Positions 6,269 through 43,275 of a DNA stretch of 64,000 nt are shown here, piece after piece. The position numbers and the translations under genes were made by a program. Origin of the DNA: Vicinamibacterales bacterium. GTDB lineage: Bacteria; Acidobacteriota; Vicinamibacteria; Vicinamibacterales; UBA8438. The stretch is taken from positions 1,293,883 to 1,357,882 of the forward strand of contig CBDDJQ010000013.1 in the NCBI GenBank assembly GCA_965229825.1, read 5' to 3'. Under the pieces are notes generated by a model. The model saw only the letters and a list, made by a program, of their open reading frames with translations, was not told the origin of the DNA and searched no databases. Position 1 is the stretch's first letter. Each line of letters starts with the position of its first letter.

Positions 6269-7624
6269 CTACACGGTCAACGGTTCGAGGGCGAGGCGCC
6301 CCGTGCTGTCGCCGAGCTGCTCGGGATCGACGACCCCCGCCTTGTCCAGCATGGCCAGCAGCAGGTTGGTCATCGGCGTGTCGCTCGGGTAGCGCACGTG
6401 CCGCCCGCCCTTCAACTGCCCGGCCCCGCCGCCGGCGAGAATCAGCGGCAGGTCGATATGCGAGTGCTGGTCGCCGTCGCTGATGCCGCCGCCGTACAGG
6501 ATGAGGGAGTGGTCGAGCAGCGACCCGTCGCCGTCCGGGGTCGCCTGCAGTTGCTGGAGGAACCCGGACAGGAGATCCACGTGATAGGTGTTGATCTTGG
6601 CGTACTGCTCGAGCTTGGCCGGGTCGAGCTGGTGATGCGACACCGAATGGTGCGCGTCGGGCACGCCCACCTCGGGATAGCTCTGGGCGGTCTGCTCGCG
6701 ACCGATCAGATAGGTGAACACGCGGGTGACGTCCGCCTGGAACGCCAGCGCCTGGAGGTCGAACATGAGGCGGGCGTGCTCGGTGAACGACTCCGGAATG
6801 CCCACCGGGCGGGCGAGGCGCTCGGGCAGATCGCCTTCGTCGGCCTGCGCCTCGACCCGCTGAATCCGGCGTTCGATCTCGCGCACCGCGTCGAGGTACT
6901 GGCTGACCCGGCGCCGGTCGCCGGCGCCGAGGCGCCGCTCGAGCCGAGCCATGTCCTCGCGCACCGCGTCGAGAATGCTGCGGTCTTCCTGCAGGCGGGC
7001 GAGGCGCTGGGCGGTGGTGCCGCCCTCGCCGAACAGCCGCTCGAACACGACGCGCGGGTTGTGCTCCATCGGCAGCGGGGTGGTCGGCGTGCGCCACGCG
7101 ATGGTGTTGGTGTAGACGCAACTGTAGCCGTTGTCGCAGTTGCCGACCACGTAGCTGTTCTCGAGCGAGAGCTCCAGCGATGGCAGCGGGGTGTCCTGAC
7201 CCAGCCTGGCCGCGGCGATCTGGTCGGCGGTCGTGCCGGCCCGGACGTCCGCGCCCTCGGTGCGCCTGGGGTGCACGCCGTTGAGCCAGACGCCGCTGGC
7301 CCGCGAATGCTCGCCGTTGCCGTCGCCCCACGCCTCGGCCTGCCGGTGGGCGAGGCCGGTCGGGATGACCACGTGGTCCCTGACGGGGGCCAGCGGACTC
7401 AGAATCGGCGACAGCTCCAGGGGGCCGTCGGCGGCCGGAGTCCATTGCGACATGTTGGCCCCGTTCGGGATGTAGATGAAGCCGAGCCGCTTCGTCGGGC
7501 GCGCGGCGGTGCGGGCGAGCGCGGTGGCCGCGGGCACCATGGCGTCGAGGAGCGGCAACGCCAGCGCGGCGCCGGCGCCTCTGAGAAACGTGCGGCGGGG
7601 CAGTGACATCCTGGTGACGATCAT
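6269..7624 (-). CDS. DUF1552 (HXXSHH) domain protein with Tat signal (cassette 1, gene 2)
   Basis: Start MIVTRMSLPRRTFLRGAGAALALPLLDAM (twin-arginine-like). HHSVSHH motif. Paralogous to 22477-23862 and 41914-43275. The ATG overlaps the upstream stop (ATGA at 7621-7624). Confidence 0.85.
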   Translation of the reverse strand: MIVTRMSLPRRTFLRGAGAALALPLLDAMVPAATALARTAARPTKRLGFIYIPNGANMSQWTPAADGPLELSPILSPLAPVRDHVVIPTGLAHRQAEAWGDGNGEHSRASGVWLNGVHPRRTEGADVRAGTTADQIAAARLGQDTPLPSLELSLENSYVVGNCDNGYSCVYTNTIAWRTPTTPLPMEHNPRVVFERLFGEGGTTAQRLARLQEDRSILDAVREDMARLERRLGAGDRRRVSQYLDAVREIERRIQRVEAQADEGDLPERLARPVGIPESFTEHARLMFDLQALAFQADVTRVFTYLIGREQTAQSYPEVGVPDAHHSVSHHQLDPAKLEQYAKINTYHVDLLSGFLQQLQATPDGDGSLLDHSLILYGGGISDGDQHSHIDLPLILAGGGAGQLKGGRHVRYPSDTPMTNLLLAMLDKAGVVDPEQLGDSTGRLALEPLTV

Positions 7625-10002
7625 GACTGCGTGCTCCTCATCCGAAACGGGGGGCTCTTGACGACACCCAGGATGAGCGTCGTCAGGCGGTAGTCGTCCT
7701 CGGCCGCCGCGCGAGTGATGGCGCGCACGGCCGGCGCGTCGTAGTACTCCACGCCGCGGCCGATGGCATAGGTCAGCAGCTTTTCGGTGACGGTGGTGAC
7801 GAAGCGTTCGGGGTGGGCCAGCAGCGCCGCCTTGAGACCGGCCGGCCCCTCGAAGACCGTGCCGTCCGGCAGTACGCCGGTCAGGTCCATCGGGACCCGG
7901 GTCTCGTTCGGGGTGCGCCAGCGGCCGATGGCGTCGAACGGCTCGAGGGCGAGGCCCAGCGGGTCCATCACCCGGTGGCAACTGGCGCACACCGGATTGG
8001 CCCGATGCTGCTCCATCGCCTCGCGCATGGTCAGGGTGCGGCCGGTGGTCGTGGCCTCCAGCGCCGGCACGTCCGCCGGGGGCGGCGGGGGCGGCGTGCC
8101 GAGGATGTTCTCGAGCACCCACTTGCCCCGTACCACCGGCGACGTGCGGTTGGCGTGCGACGTCACGGACAGGATGCTGCCGTGGCCGAGCAGCCCGCCC
8201 CGCGCGGGATCGTCGAGGGTGACCCGCCGGAAATGGCTGCCGCGCACGTTCGGGATGCCGTAGTGCAGGGCGAGCCGTTCGTTGACGAACGTGTAGTCGG
8301 CCGAGAGCAGCTCCACGACGCTGCGGTCTTCGCGGAGGACGGCGTCGAACAGCAGCTCCGTCTCGCGCCGGAACCCCTGCCGCAGGTCTTCCCCGAAGTC
8401 GGGAAAGAGGTCTTCGTCGGGCTGCACCGCGGCGGCGTTGCGGAGGCTGAGCCATTGCCCCGCGAAGTTGGTGACGAGCGCCTCCGCCCGCGGGTCGTCC
8501 AGCATGCGCCGGGTCTGGGCCTCCAGCACCGCGGGGTCCCGGAGCTCGCCGCGGATGGCGGTGTCGAGGAGCTCGCGGTCGGGGATGCTGCTCCACAGGA
8601 AGAACGACAGGCGCGAGGCCAGCTCCAGATCGTCGATCGCGTAGACCGCGCCGGGCGGGAGATTCGGCGGATCCTCGACGATGCGGAACAGGAACTCGGG
8701 GCTGACGAGCAGCCGCCGCAGGGCGAGCTCGATGCCGCCGTCGAACCCGCCGGTGGCCGCTCCCTGCTCGTAGAAGGCCAGCAGCCGCCCGACGTCCTCG
8801 CCGGTGACGGGACGGCGGAACGCGCGGCGGGCGAGGGTCGACAGGATGTCGGCGGCGCACGCGCCGGCCGCGCCGGCGTCGCCCGCCGCAGGCTGGCAGG
8901 TGAAGATGCGCGCGCGGCTCGGCGTGTCGACGGCGGGCCGGGAGCCGCGCGACTCGAACGGACCGGCGATCGTGACCCGTTCGAGATAGGGCTGGTAGCG
9001 CGAGTCGCCGCCCGACCCTTCACCGGTGAACGGCCGCCGGTACAGCTTGCGCGGGCGCTCCTGCTCGGCCGCGGTCTTGCGCAGGAAGGCGGCGCCGATG
9101 CGGTGGGGGCCGGCGCTGACCCGCACGCGAACCTCGCGCGCGTCCGCCTCCGCGTACTGGCTGCGGCGCTCGCCCGGTTCGAGGGCCCGTCCCACCGTGA
9201 ACATCTCGAGGCGCTCGCCGTCGAGGGTGAGCTCCAGTTGATGGGGTTCGATGTAGAGCGGGCCGTCCGGGACGACCGAGATCACGTACTCGGCGTCCTC
9301 GGGGAAGTTGAAGTCGACGACCATGCCCCCGCGGGTGCCGAACGGGAGCCCCGCGATGTGGTCGTCCTGCCCCTGATCGGAGGCGATGCGGAACGTCTCG
9401 GCGATCGGCGAGGGGACCGGCGACCCGACGGCGAGCCGGCTTATTTTTCTCGCCGCCGCGAGATACCGCTCCATCAGGGTCGGCGAGATCCCCAGCACCC
9501 CGGCGATGTTGTCGAAGCCGTAGCTGGTGTCGTCGGCCGGCAGCAGGTCGCTCACGTCGACGTCGAGGCCGACGAGATCGCGGATGACGTTGCTGTACTC
9601 CGTGCGGCTGAGCCGATGGAGCGCCTCGGTCCGTCCCGGTCGCAGGTCGTCGGCGGCGGCCCGGTCGAGCTCGGTCTCGAGCCACGTACGGAAGCCGTCG
9701 TAGGCCGCCCGGTCCGGCCGGGGCCGCGGCTGCGGCGGCATGGCCCCGGCTCGCAGCTTGCCGACCACCTTCTCCCAGACGGCCGCCTGACCGGCGACGT
9801 TCGTCAGGTCGATCGTCTCGAGCGACAGTCCGCCGGTCTCCAGCCGGTCGTTGTGACAGGTGACGCAGTACCGGTCGAGCAACTGGCGCCGGCCGGCGGG
9901 AGCGGCGCCGGCCGGTTCGGCGGCCAGCGGCATCCCGGCGCCTGCCGTCCCCCAGATCACCGCGGTCCCGATGGCGGCGCTGACGACCCGAAATCCAGGC
10001 AT
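7621..10002 (-). CDS. DUF1592/DUF1595/DUF1587/DUF1588/DUF1585-type protein with two CXXCH motifs (cassette 1, gene 1)
   Basis: 793 aa from MPGFRVVSAAIG. CXXCH motifs at CVTCHNDRLETGGLSLE and CASCHRVMDPLGLALEPFDAIGRWR. Conserved LASRLSFFLWSS, FAGQWL, ADYTFVNERLALHYGI, GKWVLENILGTPPPPPP. The track ORF start at 10044 is an alternative. Confidence 0.85.
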   Translation of the reverse strand: MPGFRVVSAAIGTAVIWGTAGAGMPLAAEPAGAAPAGRRQLLDRYCVTCHNDRLETGGLSLETIDLTNVAGQAAVWEKVVGKLRAGAMPPQPRPRPDRAAYDGFRTWLETELDRAAADDLRPGRTEALHRLSRTEYSNVIRDLVGLDVDVSDLLPADDTSYGFDNIAGVLGISPTLMERYLAAARKISRLAVGSPVPSPIAETFRIASDQGQDDHIAGLPFGTRGGMVVDFNFPEDAEYVISVVPDGPLYIEPHQLELTLDGERLEMFTVGRALEPGERRSQYAEADAREVRVRVSAGPHRIGAAFLRKTAAEQERPRKLYRRPFTGEGSGGDSRYQPYLERVTIAGPFESRGSRPAVDTPSRARIFTCQPAAGDAGAAGACAADILSTLARRAFRRPVTGEDVGRLLAFYEQGAATGGFDGGIELALRRLLVSPEFLFRIVEDPPNLPPGAVYAIDDLELASRLSFFLWSSIPDRELLDTAIRGELRDPAVLEAQTRRMLDDPRAEALVTNFAGQWLSLRNAAAVQPDEDLFPDFGEDLRQGFRRETELLFDAVLREDRSVVELLSADYTFVNERLALHYGIPNVRGSHFRRVTLDDPARGGLLGHGSILSVTSHANRTSPVVRGKWVLENILGTPPPPPPADVPALEATTTGRTLTMREAMEQHRANPVCASCHRVMDPLGLALEPFDAIGRWRTPNETRVPMDLTGVLPDGTVFEGPAGLKAALLAHPERFVTTVTEKLLTYAIGRGVEYYDAPAVRAITRAAAEDDYRLTTLILGVVKSPPFRMRSTQS

Positions 10003-17058: not shown

Positions 17059-17174
17059 CCGCGCTCGCGGCCGAAGTCGATGCATTCATCGGGCCGGGGA
17101 GCGTCGACGCGCAGGACTTCGAGGCCCTCGAGCAGGCCCTCCGTCGCCAAGTCCTCGGCCTCGCCGCTCAGGCG

Positions 17175-18374: not shown

Positions 18375-18441
18375 CAGCCATCTCACGAATCTGACGTGCA
18401 CCCGCGCGTCCCCGACAGGCGGCACGACGGGATGATCGCGG

Positions 18442-19005
18442 CTACGGAACCGTGAAGACGCGGGCGGCGGTGAACGTCAGGTCGGGGAGCAGAACCGAGC
18501 GCACGGCGTCGTCTTCCGCGGCGGCCTGCGCGAGCCGGTAGGCGCCCTCTTCGAGGGCGTGCACCTCGAACTGTTCGCGGAAGGGGTCGACGATCCAGTA
18601 TTCCGGCACGCCGTAGCGCGCGAACATGCGCCTCTTGCGGCCCCGGTCGATGGCCGCGGTGGACGGGGACAGCACCTCGACGGCGATGTCCGGGGGATAT
18701 CGGGTCACCGCGTCGGGGTCGACGAGATGTCGCCGTTCCGCCCGAAAGAACACGACATCGGGCTGCGCGACGTCGAACTCGCCGAGCACGATGTCGAGCG
18801 GTGCGGCGAGCGCCATCCCGCCCGCGCCCCGCTGGTAGTCGTACAACAGCAGGAAGATCGCCTGGGCGGCCATCTGGTGGCGCGGCAGCGGGGAGGGGAC
18901 CACGACGAGGGCTCCTGCGTGGATCTCGTAGCGGCGCCCGTCTTCCGGCATGTGCAGGAGGTCGGTGTAGCCGATCCGCGGCTGCACGTGCTGCATGGGC
19001 GCCAT
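18442..19005 (-). CDS. Uma2-family (DUF820) putative restriction-like endonuclease
   Basis: 187 aa from MAPMQHVQPRIGYTDLLHMPEDGRRYEIHAGALVVVPSP. Catalytic-region pattern QPDVVFF ... PDIAVEVLSPSTAAIDRGRKRRMFARYGVPEYWIVDP. Confidence 0.8.
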   Translation of the reverse strand: MAPMQHVQPRIGYTDLLHMPEDGRRYEIHAGALVVVPSPLPRHQMAAQAIFLLLYDYQRGAGGMALAAPLDIVLGEFDVAQPDVVFFRAERRHLVDPDAVTRYPPDIAVEVLSPSTAAIDRGRKRRMFARYGVPEYWIVDPFREQFEVHALEEGAYRLAQAAAEDDAVRSVLLPDLTFTAARVFTVP

Positions 19006-19213
19006 CGTATCACCGCGTACAAGCCAGATTCGTGCCGCCTCACTGGCGTGCCGGACGACTGCGGGACGGGTTTGTGTGCGCAGTTGCTGCGAGTTGGAAG
19101 GCCCAGCGAGATCGGCAAATCCGCCAGGCACGGCACGCATGCGCATCACGCGCTGACGCCGTTGGGGCTCGCTGCCGCCCCCGGCCGGATTCCGTGTCGG
19201 AGAAGCCCGAAGA

Positions 19214-19816
19214 TCAGATCCGAGGTGTGGCCCGGATGACCTCCAGGGCGATACCGTCGGGGCAGTCGGCGGACTCGGTCAGGCGGCCCTCGACCACCAC
19301 CTCGTCTCCCGCGGCGAGCCCGTGCCCCTCGTCGGTCAGCACGTAGCGCTCCCCGCCCTCGCCGTCTTCTTGCAGCACGAGGCAGCCGCCCGCGTCGTCC
19401 GCGATCCGGCCCCGGCGCCGCAGGGTGCCGTCCGGTTCGGTGACGTGGAAGGAGGCGGACACTGCCAGCGGCCGGAAGTAGACGTCCACCAGGACGAAGA
19501 AATGGGTGCGGTCGGTCGTGGCCCAGGACGGTACCTCGATGACCGTCGACATCGTGCCGAACTCGTCGGTGACGAGCTGGGCGAGGACCTCGAAGCTGGA
19601 TCGGGTGGCGCCCAGGCCGAGGTAGATCGGGGTGACGGCCGGGAGGTTGGCCGTTTCCACCGTTATCGCGGTGCCCGCGGGACCGCTGCCGGGAGAAAAG
19701 ATCGGAGCCCGCGTGTGAAGAGGGTCCAGAGGCTGGTTCGGACGATTGCTCGGTGGGGGCTGCTGCATGGCTGCGAGGGTCGCTCCCAATGGCATCATCT
19801 TAGCACTCTGCGGCAA
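19214..19816 (-). CDS. hypothetical protein
   Basis: 200-aa ORF with ordinary composition. The C-terminal CLVLQEDGEGGERYVLTDEGHGLAAGDEVVVEGRLTESADCPDGIALEVI looks like a small beta-barrel domain. No confident family assignment, and the start is uncertain. Confidence 0.5.
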   Translation of the reverse strand: MPQSAKMMPLGATLAAMQQPPPSNRPNQPLDPLHTRAPIFSPGSGPAGTAITVETANLPAVTPIYLGLGATRSSFEVLAQLVTDEFGTMSTVIEVPSWATTDRTHFFVLVDVYFRPLAVSASFHVTEPDGTLRRRGRIADDAGGCLVLQEDGEGGERYVLTDEGHGLAAGDEVVVEGRLTESADCPDGIALEVIRATPRI

Positions 19817-19974
19817 GAGGCTGCCGCTGCGCCTCGCCCAGGCCTCGGTGCGGCGCGGGGTTCTGCCCGGGCTGCCGGCGCCCCTGGACGGGCGGATCCG
19901 GCGGGGAGGCGGAGATCCCGATGATCTGCTAAACTTGCCCGATTCAGGATTCTGGCGGTTCGAGGCGACCCATC

Positions 19975-22419
19975 ATGAGACTTCCTGCCGTCCCCGCCGT
20001 GGTTCTCGCCGCCGGGCTCGCCGTTGCCGGCGGAGCCGTGAACGCCGCCGCGCAGCAAGCGGCGCCGCGCGGGCCGGCTGCGGTTCCCGACCATGACGCG
20101 CTGACCGGCGTCATGGAGACCTACTGCCAGCGGTGTCACAACGATCGGATGCTGACCGGCAACTTCTCGCTGGACGGCTTCGACATCCGGAACGCGGGCA
20201 GCGATACCGAGTCGGCCATCCGCGCCGAGAAGATGATCCGCAAGCTGCGGGCGAACATGATGCCCCCGCCGGGGATGCGGCGCCCGCCCGCGGAGACCCT
20301 GACGGCCCTGGTCGAGACGCTGGAATCGGTGGTGGACGAAACGGCCGCCGCCGACCCGAATCCCGGGTACCGCACCTTCCAGCGCCTGAATCGCTACGAG
20401 TACGGGCGGGCCGTTCACGATCTGCTGGCGCTGGAGATAGACGCGGGCGACTACCTGCCGCTCGACACCATGAGCGCCAACTTCGACAACATCGCCGACG
20501 TCCAGATGCTGTCGGCGACGCTGCTCGACGGCTATCTCCGGGCCGCGGCCGAGATAAGCCAGCTCGCGGTCGGCAATCCGGATGCGGCTCCCAAGCAGAC
20601 GACCTACGCCAAGTCGCGCGCCTACTCCCAGTGGGAGCAGGTGGAGGGAGCCCCGTACGGCAGCCGCGGCGGGTTCTCGGTGGTGCACAACTTCCCGGCC
20701 GACGGGGAGTACATCTTCCGGATGGCGTTCCAGCACACGACGACCGGCGGCCTGTCCGGATCGACCATCCGGAACGAGCAGATCGAGATCTCGATCAACG
20801 GCGAGCCGGTGGCCCTGCTGGCGATGGACCAGTGGCTGCGGACCTCCGATCCCAACGGCGTAAATCTGGAAGTCGAAGCGCCGATCGTCGTGCGGGCGGG
20901 CCCCCAGCGCGTCTCGGCGGTGTTCGTCCGGCAGTTCGAGGGGCCGGTCGAAGACGTCTTGGCGCCGCATGAGTGGTCGATCGTCGACACCGAGATCGGC
21001 GACCTCGGGTACGGCATCACCGCCCTGCCGCACATGCGGGACTTCATCATCGACGGTCCCTACAACGTTACCGGCGTATCGGAAACCCCCAGCCGCCGGA
21101 AGATCTTCAGTTGCCGTCCGACCTCTCCCGACACCGAGCGCGCCTGCGCCGAGGAAATCGTCGCGCGTCTGGCCGCCCGGGCGTACCGCCGGCCGCTGGC
21201 CGAAGCCGATCTGGCGGATCTCATGGCGTTCTACGACGCGGGCCTCGCGGACCGCGACTGGGAGACCGGCATCCGCACCGCGCTTCAGGCGACCCTGGCC
21301 AGCCCCGACTTCCTCTTCCGGCTGGAGCGGCCGGCCGGCCCCGTCGAGCCGGGGGGGAACTACCGCGTTTCGGACGTGGCCCTGGCCTCGCGGCTGGCCT
21401 TCTTCCTGTGGGGCGCCCCGCCCGATCAGGTCCTGATGGCGCGGGCCGCGGCGGGGACGCTGTCGCAGCCGGAGGTGCTCGAGGCCGAGACGCGGCGCAT
21501 GCTGGCCGACCCGCGGGCGGAGTCGCTGGCCACCCGGTTCGCGGCGCTGTGGCTGCGGCTCCAGGACATGGACCAGGTGCAGCCGGACGCATTCTGGTTC
21601 CCGAACTTCGACCGGCAGCTCGCCGATGCGATGCGCCGCGAGACCGAGCTGCTGTTCGACAGCCTCGTTCGGGAGGACCGGAGCTTCTTCGACCTGTTCA
21701 CCGCCGACTACACCTTCGTGAACGAACGGCTGGCCCGTCACTACGGCATACCGAGCGTCGCGGGACCGCAGTTCCGGCGCGTCGAGTACACCGGCGAGCA
21801 GCGGCGGGGCCTGTTCGGCCACGGCTCGGTGCTCATGCTGACGTCGATGGCCAACCGGACCTCCCCGGTGCTGCGGGGCAAGTGGGTGCTGGAAGTCGTG
21901 CTCGGCACCCCGCCGCCGCCCCCGCCCCCGGCGGTTCCCGACCTCGACGAGACGGCGGCGATCATCGACGGCAGGGCCCTCACGACCCGCGAGCGGATGG
22001 AGATCCATCGGACCAACCCCACCTGCAACGCCTGTCACCGGTTCATGGACCCGCTGGGGCTGGCCCTCGACAACTTCGACGTCATCGGAAGGTGGCGTAT
22101 CCGCGAGAACGGCGTCCCCCTGGACACCCGCGGCGAGATGTGGGACGGGACGCCGGTTTCGAGTCCGCAGGAGCTGCGCGCGGCGCTGCTGGAGCTGCAG
22201 GTTCCGCTGGCCCGCACGTTCACCGAGAACCTCATGGCCTATGCCCTGGGCCGGCGGGTCGAGCACTACGACATGCCCACGATTCGACGCATCGCCCGGA
22301 CCGCCCGGGACAACGACTACCGCATGTCGTCGTTCATTCGGGGGATCGTCACGAGCCCCGCGTTCCAGATGCAGCGGGCGGAGCACCCTGGCGGCGAGGC
22401 GGGCGCAACCGTGCAGTAG
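19975..22419 (+). CDS. DUF1592/DUF1595/DUF1587/DUF1588/DUF1585-type protein with two CXXCH motifs (cassette 2, gene 1)
   Basis: 814 aa with signal peptide MRLPAVPAVVLAAGLAVAGGAVNAAAQ. CXXCH at CQRCHNDRMLTGNFSLDGF and CNACHRFMDPLGLALDNFDVIGRWR. LASRLAFFLWGAPPD, FAALWL, ADYTFVNERLARHYGI, GKWVLEVVLGTPPPPPPP. Confidence 0.85.
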   Translation: MRLPAVPAVVLAAGLAVAGGAVNAAAQQAAPRGPAAVPDHDALTGVMETYCQRCHNDRMLTGNFSLDGFDIRNAGSDTESAIRAEKMIRKLRANMMPPPGMRRPPAETLTALVETLESVVDETAAADPNPGYRTFQRLNRYEYGRAVHDLLALEIDAGDYLPLDTMSANFDNIADVQMLSATLLDGYLRAAAEISQLAVGNPDAAPKQTTYAKSRAYSQWEQVEGAPYGSRGGFSVVHNFPADGEYIFRMAFQHTTTGGLSGSTIRNEQIEISINGEPVALLAMDQWLRTSDPNGVNLEVEAPIVVRAGPQRVSAVFVRQFEGPVEDVLAPHEWSIVDTEIGDLGYGITALPHMRDFIIDGPYNVTGVSETPSRRKIFSCRPTSPDTERACAEEIVARLAARAYRRPLAEADLADLMAFYDAGLADRDWETGIRTALQATLASPDFLFRLERPAGPVEPGGNYRVSDVALASRLAFFLWGAPPDQVLMARAAAGTLSQPEVLEAETRRMLADPRAESLATRFAALWLRLQDMDQVQPDAFWFPNFDRQLADAMRRETELLFDSLVREDRSFFDLFTADYTFVNERLARHYGIPSVAGPQFRRVEYTGEQRRGLFGHGSVLMLTSMANRTSPVLRGKWVLEVVLGTPPPPPPPAVPDLDETAAIIDGRALTTRERMEIHRTNPTCNACHRFMDPLGLALDNFDVIGRWRIRENGVPLDTRGEMWDGTPVSSPQELRAALLELQVPLARTFTENLMAYALGRRVEHYDMPTIRRIARTARDNDYRMSSFIRGIVTSPAFQMQRAEHPGGEAGATVQ

Positions 22420-22476
22420 CAGCGAGCGTGGCGCGCGAGACAGGCGAACATTCAGGAGACAGGCTGGGAGACAGAC

Positions 22477-23862
22477 ATGTTCATCACCGGAAAGCACCTT
22501 CCTCGCCGGACGTTCCTCCGTGACGTGGGGACCGCGACGCTGGCCCTGCCGTTTCTCGACGCGATGCGTCCGGCGGGACGCGTCTCGGCAGCCACCGCCG
22601 CCGCGCTCGATCCGACCCGGCTGATCTGCATCGAGATGGTGCACGGGGCCGCCGGATCCAACGCCTGGGGGGGCACCGAGCATCTGTGGAGTCCGGCCGC
22701 GGCCGGCCGCGGCTTCGATTTGACCTCGAGTGCGCTGAGCTCGCTGGAACCGTATCGCGACGACCTGACCATCATCAGCAATACCGACGTCGGGATGGCG
22801 GAAGCGTTCGCGCCACCCGAGATCGGCGGCGACCACTTCCGCACCAGCTCGGTCTACCTGACCCAGTCTCATCCGAAGCAGACCCAGGGGTCGGACGTCT
22901 TCGCCGGGACCTCCCTGGATCAACTGCATGCCGGGCGGTTCGGACAGGACACGCCGATTCCGTCGATGCAGCTCTGCATCGAGAACGTCGACCAGGCCGG
23001 CGGCTGCGCCTACGGCTACACGTGCGTCTACACCGACTCGATCAGTTGGGCGTCGCCGACCGAGCCGCTGCCGGTGACCCGGTCGCCACGGGTCGCCTTC
23101 GAGCAGCTCTTCGGGGTCGGGGGCACCGCCGAGGAGCGCGCGGCGCGCCGGCGGACCGATGCGAGCATTCTCGACTGGATGACCTCGCGGGTATCCCAGT
23201 TGACGCGCGAGCTCGGGGCGACGGATCGTCGGCGGATGGAGCGCTATCTGGACAACATCCGCGAGATCGAACGGCGTATCCAGCGGGTCGAGGTCCGGAA
23301 CCTGAGCGGCGAGCCGCGGGAGCTGCCGGCCGCGCCGGCCGGGGTGCCCGATTCGTTCGACGAGCATGTGAAGCTGATGTTCGACGTGCAGGCTCTCGCC
23401 TTTGAGAGCGACGTGACCCGGGTGTTCTCGTTCAAGATGGGCCGCGATGCCTCGGGTCGGGTCTTTCCGCTGAGCGGAACCGACAAGCCGTTCCATTCGG
23501 CGTCTCACCACGGCGGCAACGAGGATGCGATTCTCGAGTTCAGCAAGATCAACCGCTACCACGTCAGCCTGCTGCCGTACCTGCTCGACAAGCTGAAGAG
23601 CACGGAGGAGGGCGACACTCATCTGCTGGACAAGAGCGTGGTCCTCTACGGCTCGGGGATGGGCGACCCGAACCTGCACAACCACAAGCGCTGTCCGCTG
23701 ATCGCTATCGGCCACGCCAACGGCCGGCTCCCGGGCGGGCTCCATGTGAAGGCGCCGGAGGGGACGCCGATGGCGAACGCGATGCTCAGCCTGCTGCATG
23801 CCCTCGGGCACGACCGGGCGAGCTTCGGCGACAGCACCGGCGAACTCGCGCTTAGCATCTGA
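22477..23862 (+). CDS. DUF1552 (HXXSHH) domain protein with Tat signal (cassette 2, gene 2)
   Basis: 461 aa. MFITGKHLPRRTFLRDVGTATLALPFLDAM, FHSASHH motif, GDSTGELALSI C-terminus parallel to the other two copies. Confidence 0.9.
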   Translation: MFITGKHLPRRTFLRDVGTATLALPFLDAMRPAGRVSAATAAALDPTRLICIEMVHGAAGSNAWGGTEHLWSPAAAGRGFDLTSSALSSLEPYRDDLTIISNTDVGMAEAFAPPEIGGDHFRTSSVYLTQSHPKQTQGSDVFAGTSLDQLHAGRFGQDTPIPSMQLCIENVDQAGGCAYGYTCVYTDSISWASPTEPLPVTRSPRVAFEQLFGVGGTAEERAARRRTDASILDWMTSRVSQLTRELGATDRRRMERYLDNIREIERRIQRVEVRNLSGEPRELPAAPAGVPDSFDEHVKLMFDVQALAFESDVTRVFSFKMGRDASGRVFPLSGTDKPFHSASHHGGNEDAILEFSKINRYHVSLLPYLLDKLKSTEEGDTHLLDKSVVLYGSGMGDPNLHNHKRCPLIAIGHANGRLPGGLHVKAPEGTPMANAMLSLLHALGHDRASFGDSTGELALSI

Positions 23863-23877
23863 CCGGGGGAGAGGGTC

Positions 23878-25674
23878 ATGAGACTGTCACTGCGCGCGAG
23901 CGCTGTCGTGATGATGCTGGCGGCATTGTGCGCCGCGCCGTCCCTGTGGTCCGTGGTCGTCGCGGCGGCCGATTCGCCGGTGGCGGATGCCGCGAGCCGC
24001 GGCGACGGGGAGGTCGTCCGAACCCTGCTCGAACGGGGCGCGGACGTGCAGACGGCTCGACCGGACGGCATGACCGCGCTGCACTGGGCGGCGATGCGGA
24101 GCGACCTCGAAATGGCCGAGATGCTCCTGTATGCCGGCGCGAACGTCGCGGCGACGACCCGCATCGGCCAGCACACGCCGTTGCACGTCGCGGGCCGGAG
24201 CGGTCAGGCGCCGGTGGTGCAGGCGCTGCTCGAGGCCGGCGCCGACCCGCACGCCGAGACCGCGAGCGGGGCGACCCCGCTCCATCTGGCCGCGCAGGCG
24301 GGGAATGCGGCGGCCGTCGCCGCCCTGCTCGATCACGGGGCCGACGTGAACGTCCCGGAGCGGACCTGGGGACAGACGCCGCTGATGTTCGCGGCGGCGT
24401 CCAACCGGCTCGGACCGGTGAACGTGCTGATGGAGCGCGGCGCGGATCTCGAGACCGCCACGAAGGTTGTCGATCTTCCCGCGCTCGACGCGATGGACCG
24501 GGCCGCGTTCGGGCGGCGGCGCGAGGTGCTGAACGGGTTCCGGGCGGCGGCGCCGCCCCACGAGCAGCAGGGATGGCGGCCCACCGCCAGTCAGGTCCAG
24601 ACCGCGGTCCGGGCGGCGCGGGAGGTGCAGGCCCTCGCCGACGTGCCGGCCAGCGAGGACGGAACGCAGTTGGAGCGCGGCACTCCGCGCGCCTACACCG
24701 AACGGGTCGGGGTGCAGGGCGGTCTGACGGCCTTGCTGCATGCGGCCCGCCAGGGGCATACGGAGGTCGCGATGGCCCTGCTCTATGCCGGGGTCGACAT
24801 CAATCGGGTGAGCGGGGATCATACGAGCCCGCTGCAGATCGCCACCATGAACGGCCACTTCGATCTGGCGTTGCGGCTGATCGAGCGCGGCGCCGATCCC
24901 AACATCGCCACCGACGCCGGAGCCACGCCGCTGTTCGCCTCGCTCAATCTGCAGTGGGCGCCGCGGGCGCGCTATCCGCAGCCCCGCGCGCACGATCAGC
25001 AGGAAGCCACCTACCTCGACGTCATGGCGGCCCTGCTCGAGGCGGGGGCGAATCCGAACGTGAGACTCGAGAAGCACCTGTGGTACATGTCCTACAACCA
25101 CTGCTGCTCGGAGAGTGTCGACGGGTCGACGCCGTTCTGGCGCGCCGCGTACGCAACCGACGTCGAAGCCATGAAGCTCCTTCGGGCCTATGGCGCGGAC
25201 CCCCACGTTCCGACCCGGGCGCCCGAGTTGCGCCGCCGGAACGGGGTCGCCGCCGAGGGGGAGCCGGATCCGTCCGGGTTGCCGCCGGTGGAGCCGGGCG
25301 GCCCCGGCGTGTGGCCGCTCCACGCCGCCTCGGGAGTCGGCTACGGAGAGGGCTTCGAATCGAACGCCCACCGGCACGTGGCTGACGGCTGGTTGCCCTC
25401 GGTGAAGTACCTGGTGGAACAGGTCGGTGTCGACGTCAACGCCAGAGACCACGAGGGCTATACCGCGGCCCATCACGCCGCGGCCCGTGGAGACACCGAG
25501 CTCGTGCGCTATCTCGTGGAGCAGGGCGCCGACGTGATGGTGGTCAGCCGACGCGGCCAGACCACCGCGGACATGGCGAACGGCCCGTATCAGCGAACGC
25601 TGCCGTTCCCCGAGACGCTGGCCCTTCTGGAGAGCCTCGGCGCCGTCAACAACGACAACTGCGTGTCCTGCTGA
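23878..25674 (+). CDS. ankyrin repeat protein with signal peptide (cassette 2, gene 3)
   Basis: 598 aa. RBS GGGGGAGAGGG upstream. Leader MRLSLRASAVVMMLAALCAAPSLWSVVVAAA. Many ANK repeats (TALHWAAMRSDLEMAEMLLYAGANV, TPLHVAGRSGQAPVVQALLEAGADP, TPLHLAAQAGNAAAVAALLDHGADV and others). Confidence 0.85.
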   Translation: MRLSLRASAVVMMLAALCAAPSLWSVVVAAADSPVADAASRGDGEVVRTLLERGADVQTARPDGMTALHWAAMRSDLEMAEMLLYAGANVAATTRIGQHTPLHVAGRSGQAPVVQALLEAGADPHAETASGATPLHLAAQAGNAAAVAALLDHGADVNVPERTWGQTPLMFAAASNRLGPVNVLMERGADLETATKVVDLPALDAMDRAAFGRRREVLNGFRAAAPPHEQQGWRPTASQVQTAVRAAREVQALADVPASEDGTQLERGTPRAYTERVGVQGGLTALLHAARQGHTEVAMALLYAGVDINRVSGDHTSPLQIATMNGHFDLALRLIERGADPNIATDAGATPLFASLNLQWAPRARYPQPRAHDQQEATYLDVMAALLEAGANPNVRLEKHLWYMSYNHCCSESVDGSTPFWRAAYATDVEAMKLLRAYGADPHVPTRAPELRRRNGVAAEGEPDPSGLPPVEPGGPGVWPLHAASGVGYGEGFESNAHRHVADGWLPSVKYLVEQVGVDVNARDHEGYTAAHHAAARGDTELVRYLVEQGADVMVVSRRGQTTADMANGPYQRTLPFPETLALLESLGAVNNDNCVSC

Positions 25675-25690
25675 ATGCCGGACCGCGGAT

Positions 25691-26722
25691 ATGCGAATCC
25701 CTATGGTTTCCCGGTTGGTCCTGCTGCTCGCGATCGTGCTGTGCGCCCCGGCTGCGCCGCTCCAGGCCCAGTCCGGCACGATGGACATCTACTGGATCGA
25801 CGTCGAGGGCGGGGGGGCCACCCTGGTCATCTCCCCGTCCGGCGAATCGATGCTCGTCGACACCGGCTGGCCGCGCCCGGAGGGCCGGGACGCGGAGCGC
25901 ATCGTGGCCGCGATGCAGGATGCCGGGCTCGAGAAGCTCGACTACATGTTGATCACGCACTTCCACACCGACCACGTCGGCAGCCTCGAGGCGCTGGCCG
26001 GGATGGTCGAGATCGATCACTTTCTCGACCACGGCGGCGAGACGGAGGAGCGGAACCAGCAGTGGCGCGACATCTACCTGGAGACCGCTGGCGACGCGCG
26101 GATGGTCGCCGGCGCCGGGGACACCCTGTCGATGGGAGACGTCGAGGTACGGATGATCTCCTCGAACATGGAGCTGATCGTCGAGCCCATCAACGACGGC
26201 GGGCCCAACCCGCACTGCGCCGCGGCCGAGAACCGGCCGCCCGCCTCGCCCGAGAACCAACGGACCCTGGGTGCGCTGTTCAGCTACGGCGGGTTCCGGT
26301 TCGTGGATCTGGGCGACCTCGACTGGGACATGGAGATGAAGCTGTCGTGCCCCGTCAACCGGCTGGGGACCGTCACCGTCTATCAGACGAGCCGCCACGG
26401 GGCGTTCGACGGGGCTGGAGCCCCCGCCCACCTGTGGGCCATCGAGCCGCAAGTGGTCGTCGTGAACAACGGCCCCAGCAAGGGCATCACCGCGCCGCAC
26501 ATGTACGACCGCATCGCCGACGTTCCCGGCGTCGAGGGCATCTGGCAGACGCACCTCGCCCTGGAAGCGGAGGGCCACAACACCGTCGACGACATGATCG
26601 CCAACTTCGAGGACACCGACGAGTGCCAGGGCCACTGGCTGAAGGCGTCGGTCGAGGCGGACGGCACGTTCACCATGACCAACGGCCGCAACGGCTACAG
26701 CCGGACCTACACCGCCCGCTGA
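25691..26722 (+). CDS. MBL-fold metallo-hydrolase (ComEC-type beta-lactamase-like domain), secreted
   Basis: 343 aa with signal peptide MRIPMVSRLVLLLAIVLCAPAAPLQAQ. MDIYWIDVEGGGATLVISPSGESMLVDTG and ITHFHTDHVGS motifs. Confidence 0.8.
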   Translation: MRIPMVSRLVLLLAIVLCAPAAPLQAQSGTMDIYWIDVEGGGATLVISPSGESMLVDTGWPRPEGRDAERIVAAMQDAGLEKLDYMLITHFHTDHVGSLEALAGMVEIDHFLDHGGETEERNQQWRDIYLETAGDARMVAGAGDTLSMGDVEVRMISSNMELIVEPINDGGPNPHCAAAENRPPASPENQRTLGALFSYGGFRFVDLGDLDWDMEMKLSCPVNRLGTVTVYQTSRHGAFDGAGAPAHLWAIEPQVVVVNNGPSKGITAPHMYDRIADVPGVEGIWQTHLALEAEGHNTVDDMIANFEDTDECQGHWLKASVEADGTFTMTNGRNGYSRTYTAR

Positions 26723-26792
26723 CGGTGGCGGCGGCTTCCCGTCGCCCCGGTCGTCCCCGCTCCGGATCTCGGAGAGCGGTCCCTCGCGTCCT

Positions 26793-27353: not shown

Positions 27354-27550
27354 GCGCTGGGCCGGCGGGTCGCCTGCCGCCGCCGTTCGAGCAGCCGCAT
27401 CGCGGTCCGCCGGTCGAGGCCGTGGGTGGCGCGGAACGACTCGATGGCCTCGTCGCCGAGGCGAAAGGCCAGTTCTACGCGCTCGGCTGTGGACATGCGC
27501 CGGATCTCGGCGCCGGTACGCGCGCGGAGGTCGGAGGCCACCGACTTCAT
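27329..27550 (-). CDS. small hypothetical protein, candidate partner of the nucleotidyltransferase
   Basis: 73 aa from MKSVASDLRARTGAEIRRMSTAERVELAFRLGDEAIESFRATHGLDRRTAMRLLERRRQ. The track ORF extends to a TTG at 27640. The 3-prime end overlaps the NTase gene start. Confidence 0.4.
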   Translation of the reverse strand: MKSVASDLRARTGAEIRRMSTAERVELAFRLGDEAIESFRATHGLDRRTAMRLLERRRQATRRPSACLDRLIG

Positions 27551-39304: not shown

Positions 39305-41827
39305 ATGAAAATATCGCGGGCCGGGTCGGTGCCGACCATGGTCGCAGCCGTAGCGGTTGCCGTCGGGACGGCGGGCGGCTGGATCCCAGGCCGCTCTTCG
39401 GGCGAACTCCTGGCCGCCTCTGCGGCCCAGCCGCCGCCGGCTTCTCCCCAATCCGTCCGCAGCCTCCTCGATCGATACTGCGTCGCCTGTCACAGCGAGC
39501 GCCGGGTCACCGCGGTGGGCGCGGCCGCGTCCGTGCTCGATGCGCAGATCCGGGAAACCGGGCTCGCGCTGGACGTGGCGGACGCGGCGCGGCCGAGCGC
39601 CGACGCCAAGCTGTGGGAGCGGGTGATCACGCGGCTCAGGGCGGGTTCCATGCCGCCGGCCGGGCGCCCGCGGCCCAGCCAGGACGAGTCGCGCGCGGTC
39701 GCCGGCTGGCTGGAGACGCGGATCGACGAGGCGGCTTCGACGAACCCGAATCCGGGCCGGACCGGTTCGATGCACCGCCTGAACCGCACGGAGTACGGCA
39801 ACGCGATTCGCGATCTCCTCGCGCTCGAGATCGATGTGGCGGCGCTGCTGCCCGGGGACGAGACGTCGGATACCGGGTTCGACAACAACGCGGAGGTGCT
39901 CTCCATCTCGACCGCCCAGCTGGAGCGGTACCTGTCTGCCGCGCGGAAGATCTCGCACTTGGCCACCGGCGTCATGACGGCGCCGGAGTTCGCCCGGTTC
40001 GAGAACTCGGTGCTGCTGACGCAGGCGGATCGTCAGAACGAGGACCTGCCGCTCGGGTCCCGCGGCGGTCTCAGCGCCCCCTACCATTTTCCCGCCGACG
40101 GCAACTACATCTTCAGAATCGGGCTGACGACCAACTGGCAGGACTACGTCCGCGGCATGGGAAGAAGGAACCTTCTCGACCTCCGCATCGACGGACGGCT
40201 CGTCCGGCGGTTCACGGTGGGGGGCGAGGCGCCGGGCACGCCGGCTCCGACGACCTGGTCGCCGGCGGAAGCGGGCGACCCCGAGTGGGAGCGGTACGTC
40301 CGCGAGTCGGCAGCCCACCTCGAAGTCCGCGTGCCGGTCGACGGCGGACCGCACGTCGTCGGGGTCTCGTTCGTCCGGAACCTGTGGGAGCCCGAGGGAC
40401 CCCTGCAGCCGGTGATGAAGGGCGCGGTCCTGTCGAACGACGAGAAGTACCACGGGCACGCGGAGGTCCAGGCGCTGACGATCGAGGGACCCTACGAGGG
40501 CGCGGTTCCCGAGGACACGCCGAGCCGGCGGCGGGTCTTCGTGTGTCGGCCCGCCGCCGCGTCGGAGGAGGACGCGTGCGCCGGGCGGATCCTGTCGCGG
40601 CTGGCCCGTCTCGCCTATCGCAGGGCGCCGGCGGACCGGGACGTCGAGACGCTGCTTGAGTTCTTCCGGGAGGGGCGGGCGAAGGCGGGGGGCAGCTTCG
40701 ACACCGGCATCCAGTTCGCGCTCGAACGCCTGCTCGTCGATCCGGACTTCCTCCTGCGGGTGCACGAGGACCCGCCCGGCGCGGGGCCGGGAGAGGCGTA
40801 CGCGCTCGGCGATCTGGAGCTCGCCTCGCGCCTGTCGTTCTTTCTGTGGAGCAGCATCCCCGACGAGGAGCTGCTCGCGGTTGCCGAGCGCGGAGAGCTG
40901 ACGGACCCCGCGACCCTCCGCGGCCAGGTGCGGCGCCTGCTGGCCGATCCGCGCAGCGAGGCGCTGGTCGGCAACTTCGCCGCGCAGTGGCTGCACCTGC
41001 GGAACCTCGACGAGGTCAAGGCCGAGCCCTCGGTCTATCCGGAGTTCGACCAGGATCTGGTGGAGGCGTTCCGGCAGGAGACGGCGTCGTTCATCGCCAG
41101 CACCATCGACGAGGACCGGAGCGTCCTGGACCTCCTCGGCGCCGACTACACGTACGTGAACGAGCGGCTGGCGCGTCACTACGGCATCCCCGGGGTCTAC
41201 GGGAGCCGGTTCCGGCGCGTGGCGCTGCCCGACCTGGAACAGCGGGGCGGGTTGCTGGGCCACGGATCGCTGCTGTCGCTGACCTCCTACCCGAACCGCA
41301 CCTCGCCCGTCCTGCGCGGGCGGTGGTTGCTGGAGGCGATCTTCGGGGCGCCGCCGCCGGGTCCGCCGCCCGACGTGCCCCCGTTGCCCGAGCGCGGGGA
41401 GAACGAGGCGCCGGCGTCGATGCGCGAGCGTCTGGAGCTGCACCGGCGTAATCCCGCGTGTGCGGGCTGCCACCGGCTCATCGATCCGCCGGGCTTCATG
41501 CTGGAGCACTACGACGCCATCGGGAGGTGGCGGGCCGTCACCGAGGCGGGTCATCCGGTCGACGCCGTCGGCACCCTGCCGAACGGGGTGACGGCGGTGG
41601 GCCTCGCCGGACTGCGGGGCCTGTTGCTCGAAGAGCCCGAGCAGTTCGTGGGCACGCTCACCGAGCGGCTCCTGGCTTACGCCCTCGGGCGCCAACTCCG
41701 GTACTACGACCAGCCGACGGTACGCGCCATCGTCCGCAACGCGGCCGCGGACGAGCATCGCTGGTCTTCGGTCATCTTCGGCGTCGTCGAGAGCCCGGCG
41801 TTCCTGATGCGGCGGGCGGCAGAGTGA
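39305..41827 (+). CDS. DUF1592/DUF1595/DUF1587/DUF1588/DUF1585-type protein with two CXXCH motifs (cassette 3, gene 1)
   Basis: 840 aa. CXXCH at CVACHSERRV and CAGCHRLIDPPGFMLEHYDAIGRWR. LASRLSFFLWSSIPDEELL, FAAQWL, ADYTYVNERLARHYGI, GRWLLEAIFGAPPPGPPP. Confidence 0.85.
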   Translation: MKISRAGSVPTMVAAVAVAVGTAGGWIPGRSSGELLAASAAQPPPASPQSVRSLLDRYCVACHSERRVTAVGAAASVLDAQIRETGLALDVADAARPSADAKLWERVITRLRAGSMPPAGRPRPSQDESRAVAGWLETRIDEAASTNPNPGRTGSMHRLNRTEYGNAIRDLLALEIDVAALLPGDETSDTGFDNNAEVLSISTAQLERYLSAARKISHLATGVMTAPEFARFENSVLLTQADRQNEDLPLGSRGGLSAPYHFPADGNYIFRIGLTTNWQDYVRGMGRRNLLDLRIDGRLVRRFTVGGEAPGTPAPTTWSPAEAGDPEWERYVRESAAHLEVRVPVDGGPHVVGVSFVRNLWEPEGPLQPVMKGAVLSNDEKYHGHAEVQALTIEGPYEGAVPEDTPSRRRVFVCRPAAASEEDACAGRILSRLARLAYRRAPADRDVETLLEFFREGRAKAGGSFDTGIQFALERLLVDPDFLLRVHEDPPGAGPGEAYALGDLELASRLSFFLWSSIPDEELLAVAERGELTDPATLRGQVRRLLADPRSEALVGNFAAQWLHLRNLDEVKAEPSVYPEFDQDLVEAFRQETASFIASTIDEDRSVLDLLGADYTYVNERLARHYGIPGVYGSRFRRVALPDLEQRGGLLGHGSLLSLTSYPNRTSPVLRGRWLLEAIFGAPPPGPPPDVPPLPERGENEAPASMRERLELHRRNPACAGCHRLIDPPGFMLEHYDAIGRWRAVTEAGHPVDAVGTLPNGVTAVGLAGLRGLLLEEPEQFVGTLTERLLAYALGRQLRYYDQPTVRAIVRNAAADEHRWSSVIFGVVESPAFLMRRAAE

Positions 41828-41913: not shown

Positions 41914-43275
41914 ATGAAAGGCATCAACTTCATCACCGCGAAGCCCTTGTCCCGCCGGACCGTCCTGCGTGGCGTGGGCGCGACCGTGGCGCTGCCGTTT
42001 CTGGACGCCATGGCGCCCGGCTTGTCGGCGCTGGCGCGGCCCGCGGCCAGGCCGGTTCGCCGCTTCCAGGCCATCTTCGTGCCGAACGGGATGGCGATGG
42101 AGTACTGGTCGCCGGCGACGGTGGGACGCGACTTCGAGCTCACCCCGATTCTGCAGCCCCTGGCGCCGTTCCGGGACCAGATGCTCGTCTTCTCGGGGCT
42201 CCGCTCGTCGTGGATCTACGTCCACGCGGGCGCTTCCGGCTCGTTCCTGACCGGCACGCGACGCGGGGGCACGTCCGAGACGGACGTGGTGGCCGACACG
42301 TCGATCGACCAGATTCTCGCGAGCGAGCTCGGCGGCTCGACCCCGCTCGCCTCGCTCGAGCTGTCGATAGACAAGGAGGCCAACGCGGGGCAGTGCACCT
42401 CGGGCCTCAGCTGCGCGTACACCCAGACGATCTCGTGGCGCACGCCCACGATGCCGCTGCCGATGGAGAACAACCCGCGCGCGGTGTTCGAGCGGCTGTT
42501 CGGCGACAGCGGCTCGACCGACCCTGCCGTGCGACGGGCGCGCATGGAGGAGAAGCGGAGCATCCTCGACTCGGTGAGGGGCAAGCTGGCGGACATCGAG
42601 CGTCGCGTCGGGGCGGATGATCGGCGTAAGGTCGAGGACTATGCCGCGGCGATCCGCGACGTCGAGAGACGGATCGAGGTGGCGGAGTCCAAGAACGACG
42701 TGCATCCGGAGGTCTTCGCGAAAGAGCCGCGGGGCGTGCCGTCCACGTTCGAGGAGCACGTCGAGCTGATGTTCGACCTCCAGTTCCTGGCCCTCCAGAG
42801 CGACATCACCCGCGTGGCCACGTTCATGCTCGGCCGCGAGCAGAGCACCAGGACGTACCCCGAGGTGGGCATCGCCGAACCGCACCATCCGCTGTCGCAC
42901 CACGGCAACGATCCGGCCCTCATCGCCAAGATGTCCAAGGTGAACCGGTATCACGCGGAGCTGACGTCGCGGTACCTGGCGCGGCTGCGGGCGACGCCGG
43001 ACCAGGACGGGTCGCTCCTGGACAACATGACCATCATGTACGGCACGTGCATGTCCAACAGCACGCGCCATGCGGGCACCAACGTCCCGATCCTGGTGCT
43101 CGGCGGCGGTGCGGGGCGGCTCAAGGGCGGGCGGCATCTCGCGTACGGCCCGGGGACCTCGCACGCCAATCTCCTGCACACCCTGATGGACAAGTTCGAC
43201 GTTCCCCTGGAGCGTGTCGGCGGCAGCGCCGGGCCCTTGCCGATCGACGAGATCGATACGCTGTCGGAGGTGTAG
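41914..43275 (+). CDS. DUF1552 (HXXSHH) domain protein with Tat signal (cassette 3, gene 2)
   Basis: 453 aa from ATG preceded by AAGAGGA. MKGINFITAKPLSRRTVLRGVGATVALPFLDAM and the HHPLSHH motif. Closest by eye to cassette 1 gene 2. Confidence 0.9.
   Translation: MKGINFITAKPLSRRTVLRGVGATVALPFLDAMAPGLSALARPAARPVRRFQAIFVPNGMAMEYWSPATVGRDFELTPILQPLAPFRDQMLVFSGLRSSWIYVHAGASGSFLTGTRRGGTSETDVVADTSIDQILASELGGSTPLASLELSIDKEANAGQCTSGLSCAYTQTISWRTPTMPLPMENNPRAVFERLFGDSGSTDPAVRRARMEEKRSILDSVRGKLADIERRVGADDRRKVEDYAAAIRDVERRIEVAESKNDVHPEVFAKEPRGVPSTFEEHVELMFDLQFLALQSDITRVATFMLGREQSTRTYPEVGIAEPHHPLSHHGNDPALIAKMSKVNRYHAELTSRYLARLRATPDQDGSLLDNMTIMYGTCMSNSTRHAGTNVPILVLGGGAGRLKGGRHLAYGPGTSHANLLHTLMDKFDVPLERVGGSAGPLPIDEIDTLSEV

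Follow-up and report, generated by a model that had tools for sequence, protein, structure and literature searches.

The PSCyt and PSD domains were first defined in Rhodopirellula baltica. In Planctomycetota, Verrucomicrobiota, Acidobacteriota and Gemmatimonadota, the PSCyt/PSD cytochromes and their DUF1552 or DUF1501 partners rank with the most abundant gene families that lack a known function; to our knowledge, none of them has an experimentally assigned role. He et al. 2017 (PMC5615132) observed that genes for PSCyt3 proteins usually adjoin a family of unknown genes and that these pairs are conserved and functionally uncharacterized. The closest functional parallel to the locus described here is the katB–ankB operon of Pseudomonas aeruginosa, found also in Myxococcus, where the periplasmic ankyrin-like protein AnkB is required for optimal activity of the heme catalase KatB (Howell et al. 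2000, cited in PMC12754779). We analyzed a 64,000-nucleotide (nt) stretch of a Vicinamibacterales genome (contig CBDDJQ010000013.1, positions 1,293,883 to 1,357,882; hereafter the window), in which three PSCyt3/PSD–DUF1552 gene pairs, here called A and B, are each followed by a gene for an ankyrin-repeat protein, C. The three copies are numbered as cassettes 1 to 3 (Table 1).

The A–B portion of these cassettes resembles the pairs of Planctomycetota and Verrucomicrobiota in the domain architecture of A, in the CXXCH motif inside PSCyt3, in the DUF1552 gene lying directly downstream and in the twin-arginine leader of B. Planctomycete-type A, however, is far longer (~4 kb) or split into two genes, whereas the A proteins of the window are compact (~800 amino acids), and planctomycete-type pairs lack a third gene, whereas the window cassettes add a predicted exported ankyrin protein of a dedicated subfamily. 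With katB–ankB, the cassettes share an ankyrin gene directly downstream of an extracytoplasmic heme-containing enzyme system, its product bearing an export signal that is predicted in the case of C; the partners differ, being a PSCyt3 cytochrome and a DUF1552 protein, and C is far larger (500–600 amino acids) and has family-specific loops. No catalase gene is found in or beside any cassette, so the trio is not a member of the katB–ankB system, and AnkB is a parallel for how the module may work and not for family membership. Full-text literature searches on the DUF and PSCyt names and on periplasmic ankyrin proteins with cytochromes returned no description of an ankyrin partner. A preliminary description of the window had taken the A–B pair to be known and uncharacterized, which agrees with its published account (PMC5615132), and had considered a third ankyrin partner to be new; that partner is apparently undescribed.

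The ankyrin gene is a conserved third member of one clade of pairs

A B alignment was searched against one genome per GTDB species, yielding 587 relatives, and the best 80 of the 587 (loci L001–L080) were examined. These are 61–94% identical to B2 and come from Vicinamibacterales, other Acidobacteriota, Holophagae and Gemmatimonadota (Longimicrobiales, Gemmatimonadales), with the two best matches (91–94%) located on Vicinamibacterales chromosomes. An A gene lies directly upstream of the B2-like gene in 85 of 88 evaluable cases, and an orthologous ankyrin gene lies directly downstream in 85 of 90. The downstream ankyrin proteins share 41–92% identity with C2 (median 54%), compared with ~30% for unrelated ankyrin proteins, and the gap between B and C has a median of 13 nt across 72 related loci. 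The linkage also holds from the ankyrin side, as PSD/PSCyt3 and HXXSHH genes are found directly upstream in five of five sampled C1-type contexts (66–100% identity). In the Alphaproteobacteria, Novosphingobium sp. KACC 22771 has on a megaplasmid an A (41% identity), a B (46% to B1) and a gene for a 444-amino-acid ankyrin protein with a predicted signal peptide. Because the trio is conserved in three phyla, we regard the ankyrin protein as a dedicated partner of the pair.

The five ankyrin-less cases among the 90 are not counter-examples. Locus L029 has the gene order A–B–B–C, and L032 holds a B fragment at a contig edge. L042 contains an open frame running from B into C (10001–13336), which we rejected as Rosetta-stone evidence because C retains a Met and a signal peptide of its own; the frame probably reflects a lost stop codon or an assembly error and not a functional fusion. 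The two clearest exceptions, L039 and L041, are one and the same decayed cassette, disrupted by insertion sequences. In L039 (7487–8923 and 13176–13757) and in L041, a DUF772/DDE transposase cuts A short, with an integrase-core gene downstream. One Marinacidobacterales genome (chromosome OZ253507.1) contains this remnant twice, and its copies alone among B2-like genes lack an intact A or a C.

The linkage is restricted to part of the wider family. Scanning metagenomes with the Planctomyces B as seed yielded 80 loci (71–94% identity), 54 of them with at least 1 kb of downstream sequence, and none of these 54 planctomycete-type DUF1552 loci has an ankyrin gene (85/90 versus 0/54, Fisher P = 3 × 10−34). 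No ankyrin gene was found beside the plasmid pairs of Planctomyces sp. SH-PL62, Chondrinema litorale and Sphingobium either, in which an A-type gene is upstream and B is 24–34% identical. The preliminary description had taken the ankyrin gene to be a conserved third partner of the DUF1592–DUF1552 pair. This claim stands for the clade in which B is at least ~38% identical to the window copies and fails for the planctomycete-type, Chondrinema and Sphingobium pairs.

We found no conserved fourth gene. Apart from A and C, de novo clustering of flanking open reading frames (ORFs), using an ORF filter that missed B, gave no family present in more than 11 of the 80 loci. The commonest other neighbor, a SusC-like TonB-dependent receptor paired with a SusD-like protein, occurs in 10–11 of the 80 and was rejected as a component of the system because it is too rare; the window neighbors of the cassettes (metallo-beta-lactamase-fold, HtpG, pyrroloquinoline quinone (PQQ) propeller and cyclase genes) are kept in close relatives only. 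As no other neighbor is conserved, the conserved unit is exactly A–B–C.

The three genes have also diverged together. Pairwise identities across 68 triads are correlated for A and B (r = 0.89), B and C (r = 0.79) and A and C (r = 0.75). Within the window, all three families place cassettes 1 and 3 closest to each other, indicating that triads were duplicated whole. Tandem triads are present at L003–L007, L013, L014, L020, L032, L037 and L075, many of them from Gemmatimonadota and some from Vicinamibacteria; copies within a locus are only 60–81% (A), 68–90% (B) and 55–61% (C) identical, so these tandem duplications are old.

The closest relative of the window, L001, contains an extra cassette in the order C–A–B (16795–21382), comprising a C3-like ankyrin gene (46%), an A3-like gene and a B1-like gene, which is missing at the matching place in the window.

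Architecture of the three cassettes

Searching the window with all nine proteins (tblastn) gave three A, three B and three C regions, arranged as exactly three A–B–C cassettes, and no ankyrin-coding DNA outside them. Each ankyrin gene of the 64 kb therefore sits behind an A–B pair. In every cassette B is downstream of A on the same strand, at distances ranging from a 4-nt overlap in cassette 1 to an 86-nt gap. C1 begins immediately after the B1 stop codon (0-nt gap) and C2 follows B2 by 15 nt. This spacing is operon-like, the sole larger gap being the 232 nt between B3 and the ATG start of C3. That start is uncertain, as the ORF opens at 43214, and A1 may begin at the ATG at 10002 or at a GTG at 10044. 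A scan of 19000–27500 for sigma-70 promoters and terminators was uninformative, with hits at or below the shuffle expectation, and no RNA families were found in the window (Rfam).

The paralogues are old copies, with pairwise identities among the three cassettes of 42–49% for A, 40–50% for B and 31–38% for C; the nearest paralogue of C3 in the window is C1 (38%). The preliminary description had already listed the nine ORFs, and all are present apart from the minor start ambiguities above. It had judged the DUF1552 copies to be roughly half identical and the duplications not recent, which the measured identities bear out, and its family assignments were recovered by Pfam for all nine proteins. 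Its further particulars proved accurate as well: each gene 1 encodes exactly two CXXCH motifs, each gene 2 a twin-arginine leader and HxxSHH, and each gene 3 an ankyrin-repeat protein with a hydrophobic, signal-like N-terminus, and by a simple heuristic together with the RR motif all of A, B and C have export-type N-termini.

Table 1 Coordinates and features of the nine cassette genes in the window. Residues of A1 are numbered from the ATG start.
Gene	Coordinates	Strand	Product and features
A1	7621..10002	−	Predicted two-heme, exported PSCyt3/PSD protein; Pfam PSD3, PSD5, PSD4, PSCyt3, PSD2; signal-peptide-like N-terminus; CVTCH at residue 46, CASCH at residue 672
B1	6269..7624	−	DUF1552/HXXSHH protein (Pfam E = 2e-101); twin-arginine leader RRTFLR; HSVSHH
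C1	4757..6268	−	Ankyrin-repeat protein, C1 type, predicted exported; Pfam Ank families
A2	19975..22419	+	Predicted two-heme, exported PSCyt3/PSD protein (Pfam); CQRCH at residue 51, CNACH at residue 684
B2	22477..23862	+	DUF1552/HXXSHH protein (Pfam E = 5e-80); twin-arginine leader RRTFLR; HSASHH
C2	23878..25674	+	Ankyrin-repeat protein, C2 type, predicted exported; Pfam Ank; NNxxCxSC tail at 25651-25671
A3	39305..41827	+	Predicted two-heme, exported PSCyt3/PSD protein (Pfam); CVACH at residue 59, CAGCH at residue 719
B3	41914..43275	+	DUF1552/HXXSHH protein (Pfam E = 6e-95); twin-arginine leader RRTVLR; HPLSHH
C3	43508..45040	+	Ankyrin-repeat protein, predicted exported; Pfam Ank; signal-peptide-like N-terminus from the ATG at 43508

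Protein A combines two heme-binding motifs with a putative carbohydrate-binding fold

All three A proteins match PSD3/DUF1587, PSD5/DUF1595, PSD4/DUF1592, PSCyt3/DUF1588 and PSD2/DUF1585 above the gathering cut-offs (51–166 bits against cut-offs of 23–34; E = 1e-13 to 5e-49). The N-terminal cytochrome domain scores 18–23 bits with Cytochrome_CBB3, below the Pfam cut-off of 27, and its CXXCH and a downstream M-P are invariant in a family alignment of 56 sequences. The second CXXCH, inside PSCyt3, is equally constant, with C684, C687 and H688 invariant in the same alignment. The consensus of these 56 sequences further contains the motifs that the preliminary description had quoted, namely LASRLSFFLW, ADYTFVNERLARHYGI, GTPPPPPPP and the C-x-x-C-H-R-x-x-D-P-x-G block. 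A Cys pair, C380/C391, is invariant in A and would suit a periplasmic disulfide.

An AlphaFold2 model of A2 (predicted local distance difference test score (pLDDT) 79) contains a beta-sandwich at approximately residues 207–367 resembling a carbohydrate-binding module (CBM). It matches CBM35, CBM6 and the carbohydrate-binding domain of BcsB with probability ~1 and a template-modeling (TM) score to target of 0.45–0.5; the jelly roll is alike, but the fold is generic and the E values (4e-3 to 0.1) are weak. Recognized CBMs do occur in some PSCyt and DUF1592 proteins (PMC5615132), and a Cellvibrio DUF1592 protein is annotated with CBM2 (PMC6004670). For the helical PSD5–PSD4–PSCyt3–PSD2 body of the A2 model, no solved structural relative was found. 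When A2, B2 and a B profile were compared by sequence with all PDB chains, nothing meaningful was returned, and NCBIfam has no model for A, for B or for the cassette ankyrin subfamily.

Protein B has a candidate metal site and a twin-arginine leader

The HXXSHH family matches B1, B2 and B3 over their full length (270–340 bits). Their leaders read (L)PRRTFLR or (L)SRRTVLR followed by ALPFLDAM, to be compared with the twin-arginine translocation (Tat) motif S/T-R-R-x-F-L-K and its hydrophobic stretch, and B proteins sharing only 24–49% identity all have the RR. Nine residues are invariant family-wide (D148, D250, Y257, E265, T314, H340, H344, D385 and H401), and together these look like a metal site.

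The hydrophobic part of the leader, ALPFLDAM (residues ~20–30; 22534–22566 of the window in B2), is partly kept between B clades that are 24–34% identical, and L24 and P25 are invariant. Such retention is unusual for a cleaved signal, and the segment could serve as an uncleaved anchor or a chaperone-binding site.

The AlphaFold2 model of B2 (pLDDT 71, predicted TM score 0.81) has no strong structural neighbor. In a Foldseek comparison with the PDB, nearly all of the 49 best matches nevertheless belong to the alkaline-phosphatase superfamily or its close relatives, including S1 sulfatases, phosphopentomutase, choline sulfatase and autotaxin (best E = 2.6e-3, probability 0.87, TM score 0.32). 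B thus models weakly as an alkaline-phosphatase-superfamily fold, and this resemblance to hydrolases means that a purely redox reading of the cassettes is not the sole option. When B is set beside superfamily members (the S1 sulfatase BT1596 (5g2t), phosphopentomutase and the nucleotide pyrophosphatase/phosphodiesterase (NPP) autotaxin), three Asp, three His and one Thr among its invariants approximate the residue count of the bimetal alkaline phosphatase/NPP site, but their order is not obviously mappable onto that site and the TM score is ~0.3.

Cysteines distinguish subsets of B. C177 and C183 are invariant in the triads analyzed and lost in the Planctomyces, Chondrinema and Sphingobium proteins, and would fit a periplasmic disulfide. 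Type-2 B proteins have two extra cysteines, C167 (93%) and C406 (81%), neither of which is found in B1 or B3; C406 adjoins the family-invariant H401.

Protein C belongs to a specialized ankyrin subfamily

The Pfam families Ank_2, Ank, Ank_3, Ank_4 and Ank_5 score 103–208 bits in C1, C2 and C3 (E down to 1e-63). Orthologues of C1 (n = 118, 66–89% identity), which are named only 'ankyrin repeat domain-containing protein', have non-consensus inter-repeat loops in common that are conserved at 95% or above: WTxRPNLGRNPPFPVP, EPRDGNRN, MAAAGVGIWKIGENPGTN and GVFYPNTFNRHP. The C2 type has its own conserved loops (FWRA, AAxGxGxG and ANGPxxRxxP) and a central insert of low conservation, and two inter-repeat loops are recognizably common to both types. 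Judged by these loops, C belongs to a specialized ankyrin subfamily and is not a generic ankyrin protein. The C2 type further ends in ...NN(H)xCxSC in 66 of 70 aligned sequences, with Cys usually the last residue, and this tail is missing from the C1 and C3 types. Giant multi-repeat ankyrin proteins dominated the matches when a representative library was searched with the C-terminal half of C2, though several dozen clusters at 50% identity match it full-length to the C-terminus.

Signal peptides were called by a simple rule of hydrophobicity and charge. Under this heuristic, a positively charged n-region followed by a hydrophobic h-region is present in 69 of 70 C2-type and 116 of 118 C1-type orthologues, and the pattern is lacking in two cytoplasmic controls from the window (HtpG and a dynamin-like protein). 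The C2 leader contains no lipobox by eye. In the C2 type a conserved first repeat, SPVADAAMRGD, comes directly after the leader, and the C1 type has a different motif, PLIEAxKxGD, at that position. Taken with the twin-arginine leader of B, export of all three proteins is well supported, if not proven.

A candidate three-component extracytoplasmic module

We consider it probable that each cassette is a three-gene operon for an extracytoplasmic, most likely periplasmic, three-component module in which C is the cognate accessory subunit. Under this proposal, A would be exported by the Sec pathway, as heme attachment requires, and would mature to a two-heme c-type cytochrome consisting of an N-terminal class-I-like domain and PSCyt3, together with its CBM-like beta-sandwich and large helical body. 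B would be exported folded through Tat and is a probable catalytic metalloprotein, the family-wide invariants of which count three Asp, one Thr and three His, those of the HxxSH core among them, and the model of which has a weakly alkaline-phosphatase-like core; electrons may pass between A and B. C, also a presumed Sec substrate, would use its ankyrin solenoid to bind the cognate A–B pair, contributing to assembly, to stabilization or to the docking of partners and substrates. The preliminary description had suggested a periplasmic heme-dependent redox or sensing module with the ankyrin protein as putative adaptor or scaffold, functions that are hypothetical for the trio.

Several observations weigh against this proposal. 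The signal peptides rest on a hydrophobicity heuristic, and the alkaline-phosphatase-like fold of B is weak by each of the measures given above. Mature B1, B2 and B3 all lack the sulfatase signature C/S-x-P/A-x-R (formylglycine site), and the first beta-strand of B is without the usual metal-binding Asp. A hydrolase B would leave a two-heme partner with no obvious role. Distant pairs do without an ankyrin gene, so C is dispensable for the family's core chemistry, and the co-divergence of the three proteins is expected for any co-inherited operon genes and by itself proves no interaction.

Other explanations of the third gene are less supported than an accessory-subunit module. One, that the genes adjoin by chance or through an artefact of annotation, has a basis in the composition of the window, since at ~69% G+C long spurious ORFs are common. 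It is effectively refuted: the nine cassette ORFs have coding-type codon-position composition (G+C at third positions, 0.87–0.91) and strong Pfam matches, and the contrast of 85/90 with 0/54 gives P = 3 × 10−34. It is improbable, too, that C is an independent exported 'eukaryote-like' effector that merely shares the A–B transcript, a role that has been proposed for ankyrin proteins of symbionts and pathogens. The only NCBIfam matches of C are indeed the ankyrin repeats of Legionella Dot/Icm effectors, but at ~100 bits (best 109) against cut-offs of 450–1400 these reflect generic repeats only, and we rejected the identification. Nearly all ankyrin genes in 1.3 Mb of related loci directly follow B, and one in L001 lies ahead of an A–B pair instead; those of the window are all inside cassettes; the divergence of C parallels that of A and B; and the triad occurs in a soil isolate of Novosphingobium. 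A sensing or regulatory device, in which C is an inhibitor or adaptor that gates A–B or couples it to another envelope protein, would draw on the generic use of ankyrin repeats as protein–protein interaction modules, on the high conservation of the concave-face loops within each C type and on a Rhodopirellula DUF1552 gene counted among stress-regulated genes (PMC2754498). We find this quite unlikely, as no kinase, sigma factor or anti-sigma factor gene is conserved beside the triads, and multiple diverged and tandem triads per genome resemble substrate-diversified enzyme sets more than sensors.

A rather unlikely reading, to which we nonetheless give somewhat more weight, makes C a maturation factor and not a structural subunit: acting in the periplasm as a metallochaperone or thiol-redox helper, it would load or activate B, or assist A, and in type-2 cassettes would do so through the flexible C-terminal His-x-Cys-x-x-Cys tail. 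The near-universal tail of the C2 type favors it, as do the extra C167 and C406 of type-2 B proteins, which B1 and B3, whose C partners are tail-less, do not have; the dependence of the heme enzyme KatB on AnkB (PMC12754779, reference 56) points the same way. Against it, the tail-less C1- and C3-type proteins are equally well conserved beside A–B, Tat substrates normally gain their cofactors before export, and C406 is missing in 11 of 65 tailed triads. The accessory-subunit proposal can also be stated in a bolder form, which we hold to be unlikely yet worth setting out: C may be an obligate third subunit or maturation factor of an unrecognized class of periplasmic enzymes, built from an alkaline-phosphatase-like DUF1552 protein and a two-heme, CBM-bearing A, whose triads are self-contained, non-interchangeable and tuned to different substrates, with the C2 tail delivering metal or reducing equivalents to the Cys near the B active site.

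Whichever role C plays, the ankyrin-bearing clade opens an opaque gene pair of very high abundance to tests as a three-protein system. One genome with three or more diverged triads amounts to a natural specificity experiment, and the cultured Novosphingobium strain with its megaplasmid triad is likely to be a tractable host. The trio also adds a putative second, much larger case of periplasmic ankyrin proteins that serve heme proteins and are not eukaryote-directed effectors.

Genes neighboring the cassettes

Several genes near the cassettes recur or stand out. TonB-dependent receptors with carboxypeptidase-regulatory-like domains are encoded at 34159–37299 (−), 2 kb upstream of cassette 3, and at 51040–54735 (+), and an example of the SusC/SusD pair at a triad is found in L004 (15675–20065); these offer a faint hint of a link to the uptake of external polymers. 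Downstream of cassette 3 lies a PF04199 'putative cyclase' gene (kynurenine-formamidase-like; 45342–46301, +), which recurs at A–B(–C) units in unrelated contexts: it is divergently upstream of C1-type triads of marine Acidobacteria (L165–L169 and L172, ~1114–2091, −) and near the Sphingobium pair (L084, 1–490). HtpG (Hsp90) is encoded directly downstream of C1 on the same strand (2627–4645, −), and this order is kept in a marine relative whose C is 71% identical (L170 and L171, 6571–8592). Metallo-beta-lactamase-fold genes with signal-like N-termini are present at 486–1385 (−), 25691–26722 (+) and 30534–31487 (+), one of them directly after C2 and another two genes after C1.

Just upstream of cassette 2, 17175–19149 contains a UPF0236-like (transposase-like) ORF and a Uma2-family endonuclease gene, the latter common to L002 and not to L001. 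A ferritin-like (bacterioferritin-type) gene (33526–34005, −) lies near an ORF with a [2Fe-2S] domain like that of bacterioferritin-associated ferredoxin (BFD) (32002–33228, +). The region 48000–54000 has anomalous strand composition, with a GC skew of +0.16 to +0.18 and an AT skew down to −0.35, and no tandem repeats or RNA families were found in it; it covers a HAMP–SpoIIE phosphatase gene (48782–51010, −) and the second TonB-dependent receptor gene. Two paralogous NHL/Reg_prop repeat proteins are encoded at 46865–48178 (+), after the cyclase gene beyond cassette 3, and at 54215–55498 (+), right after that receptor gene.

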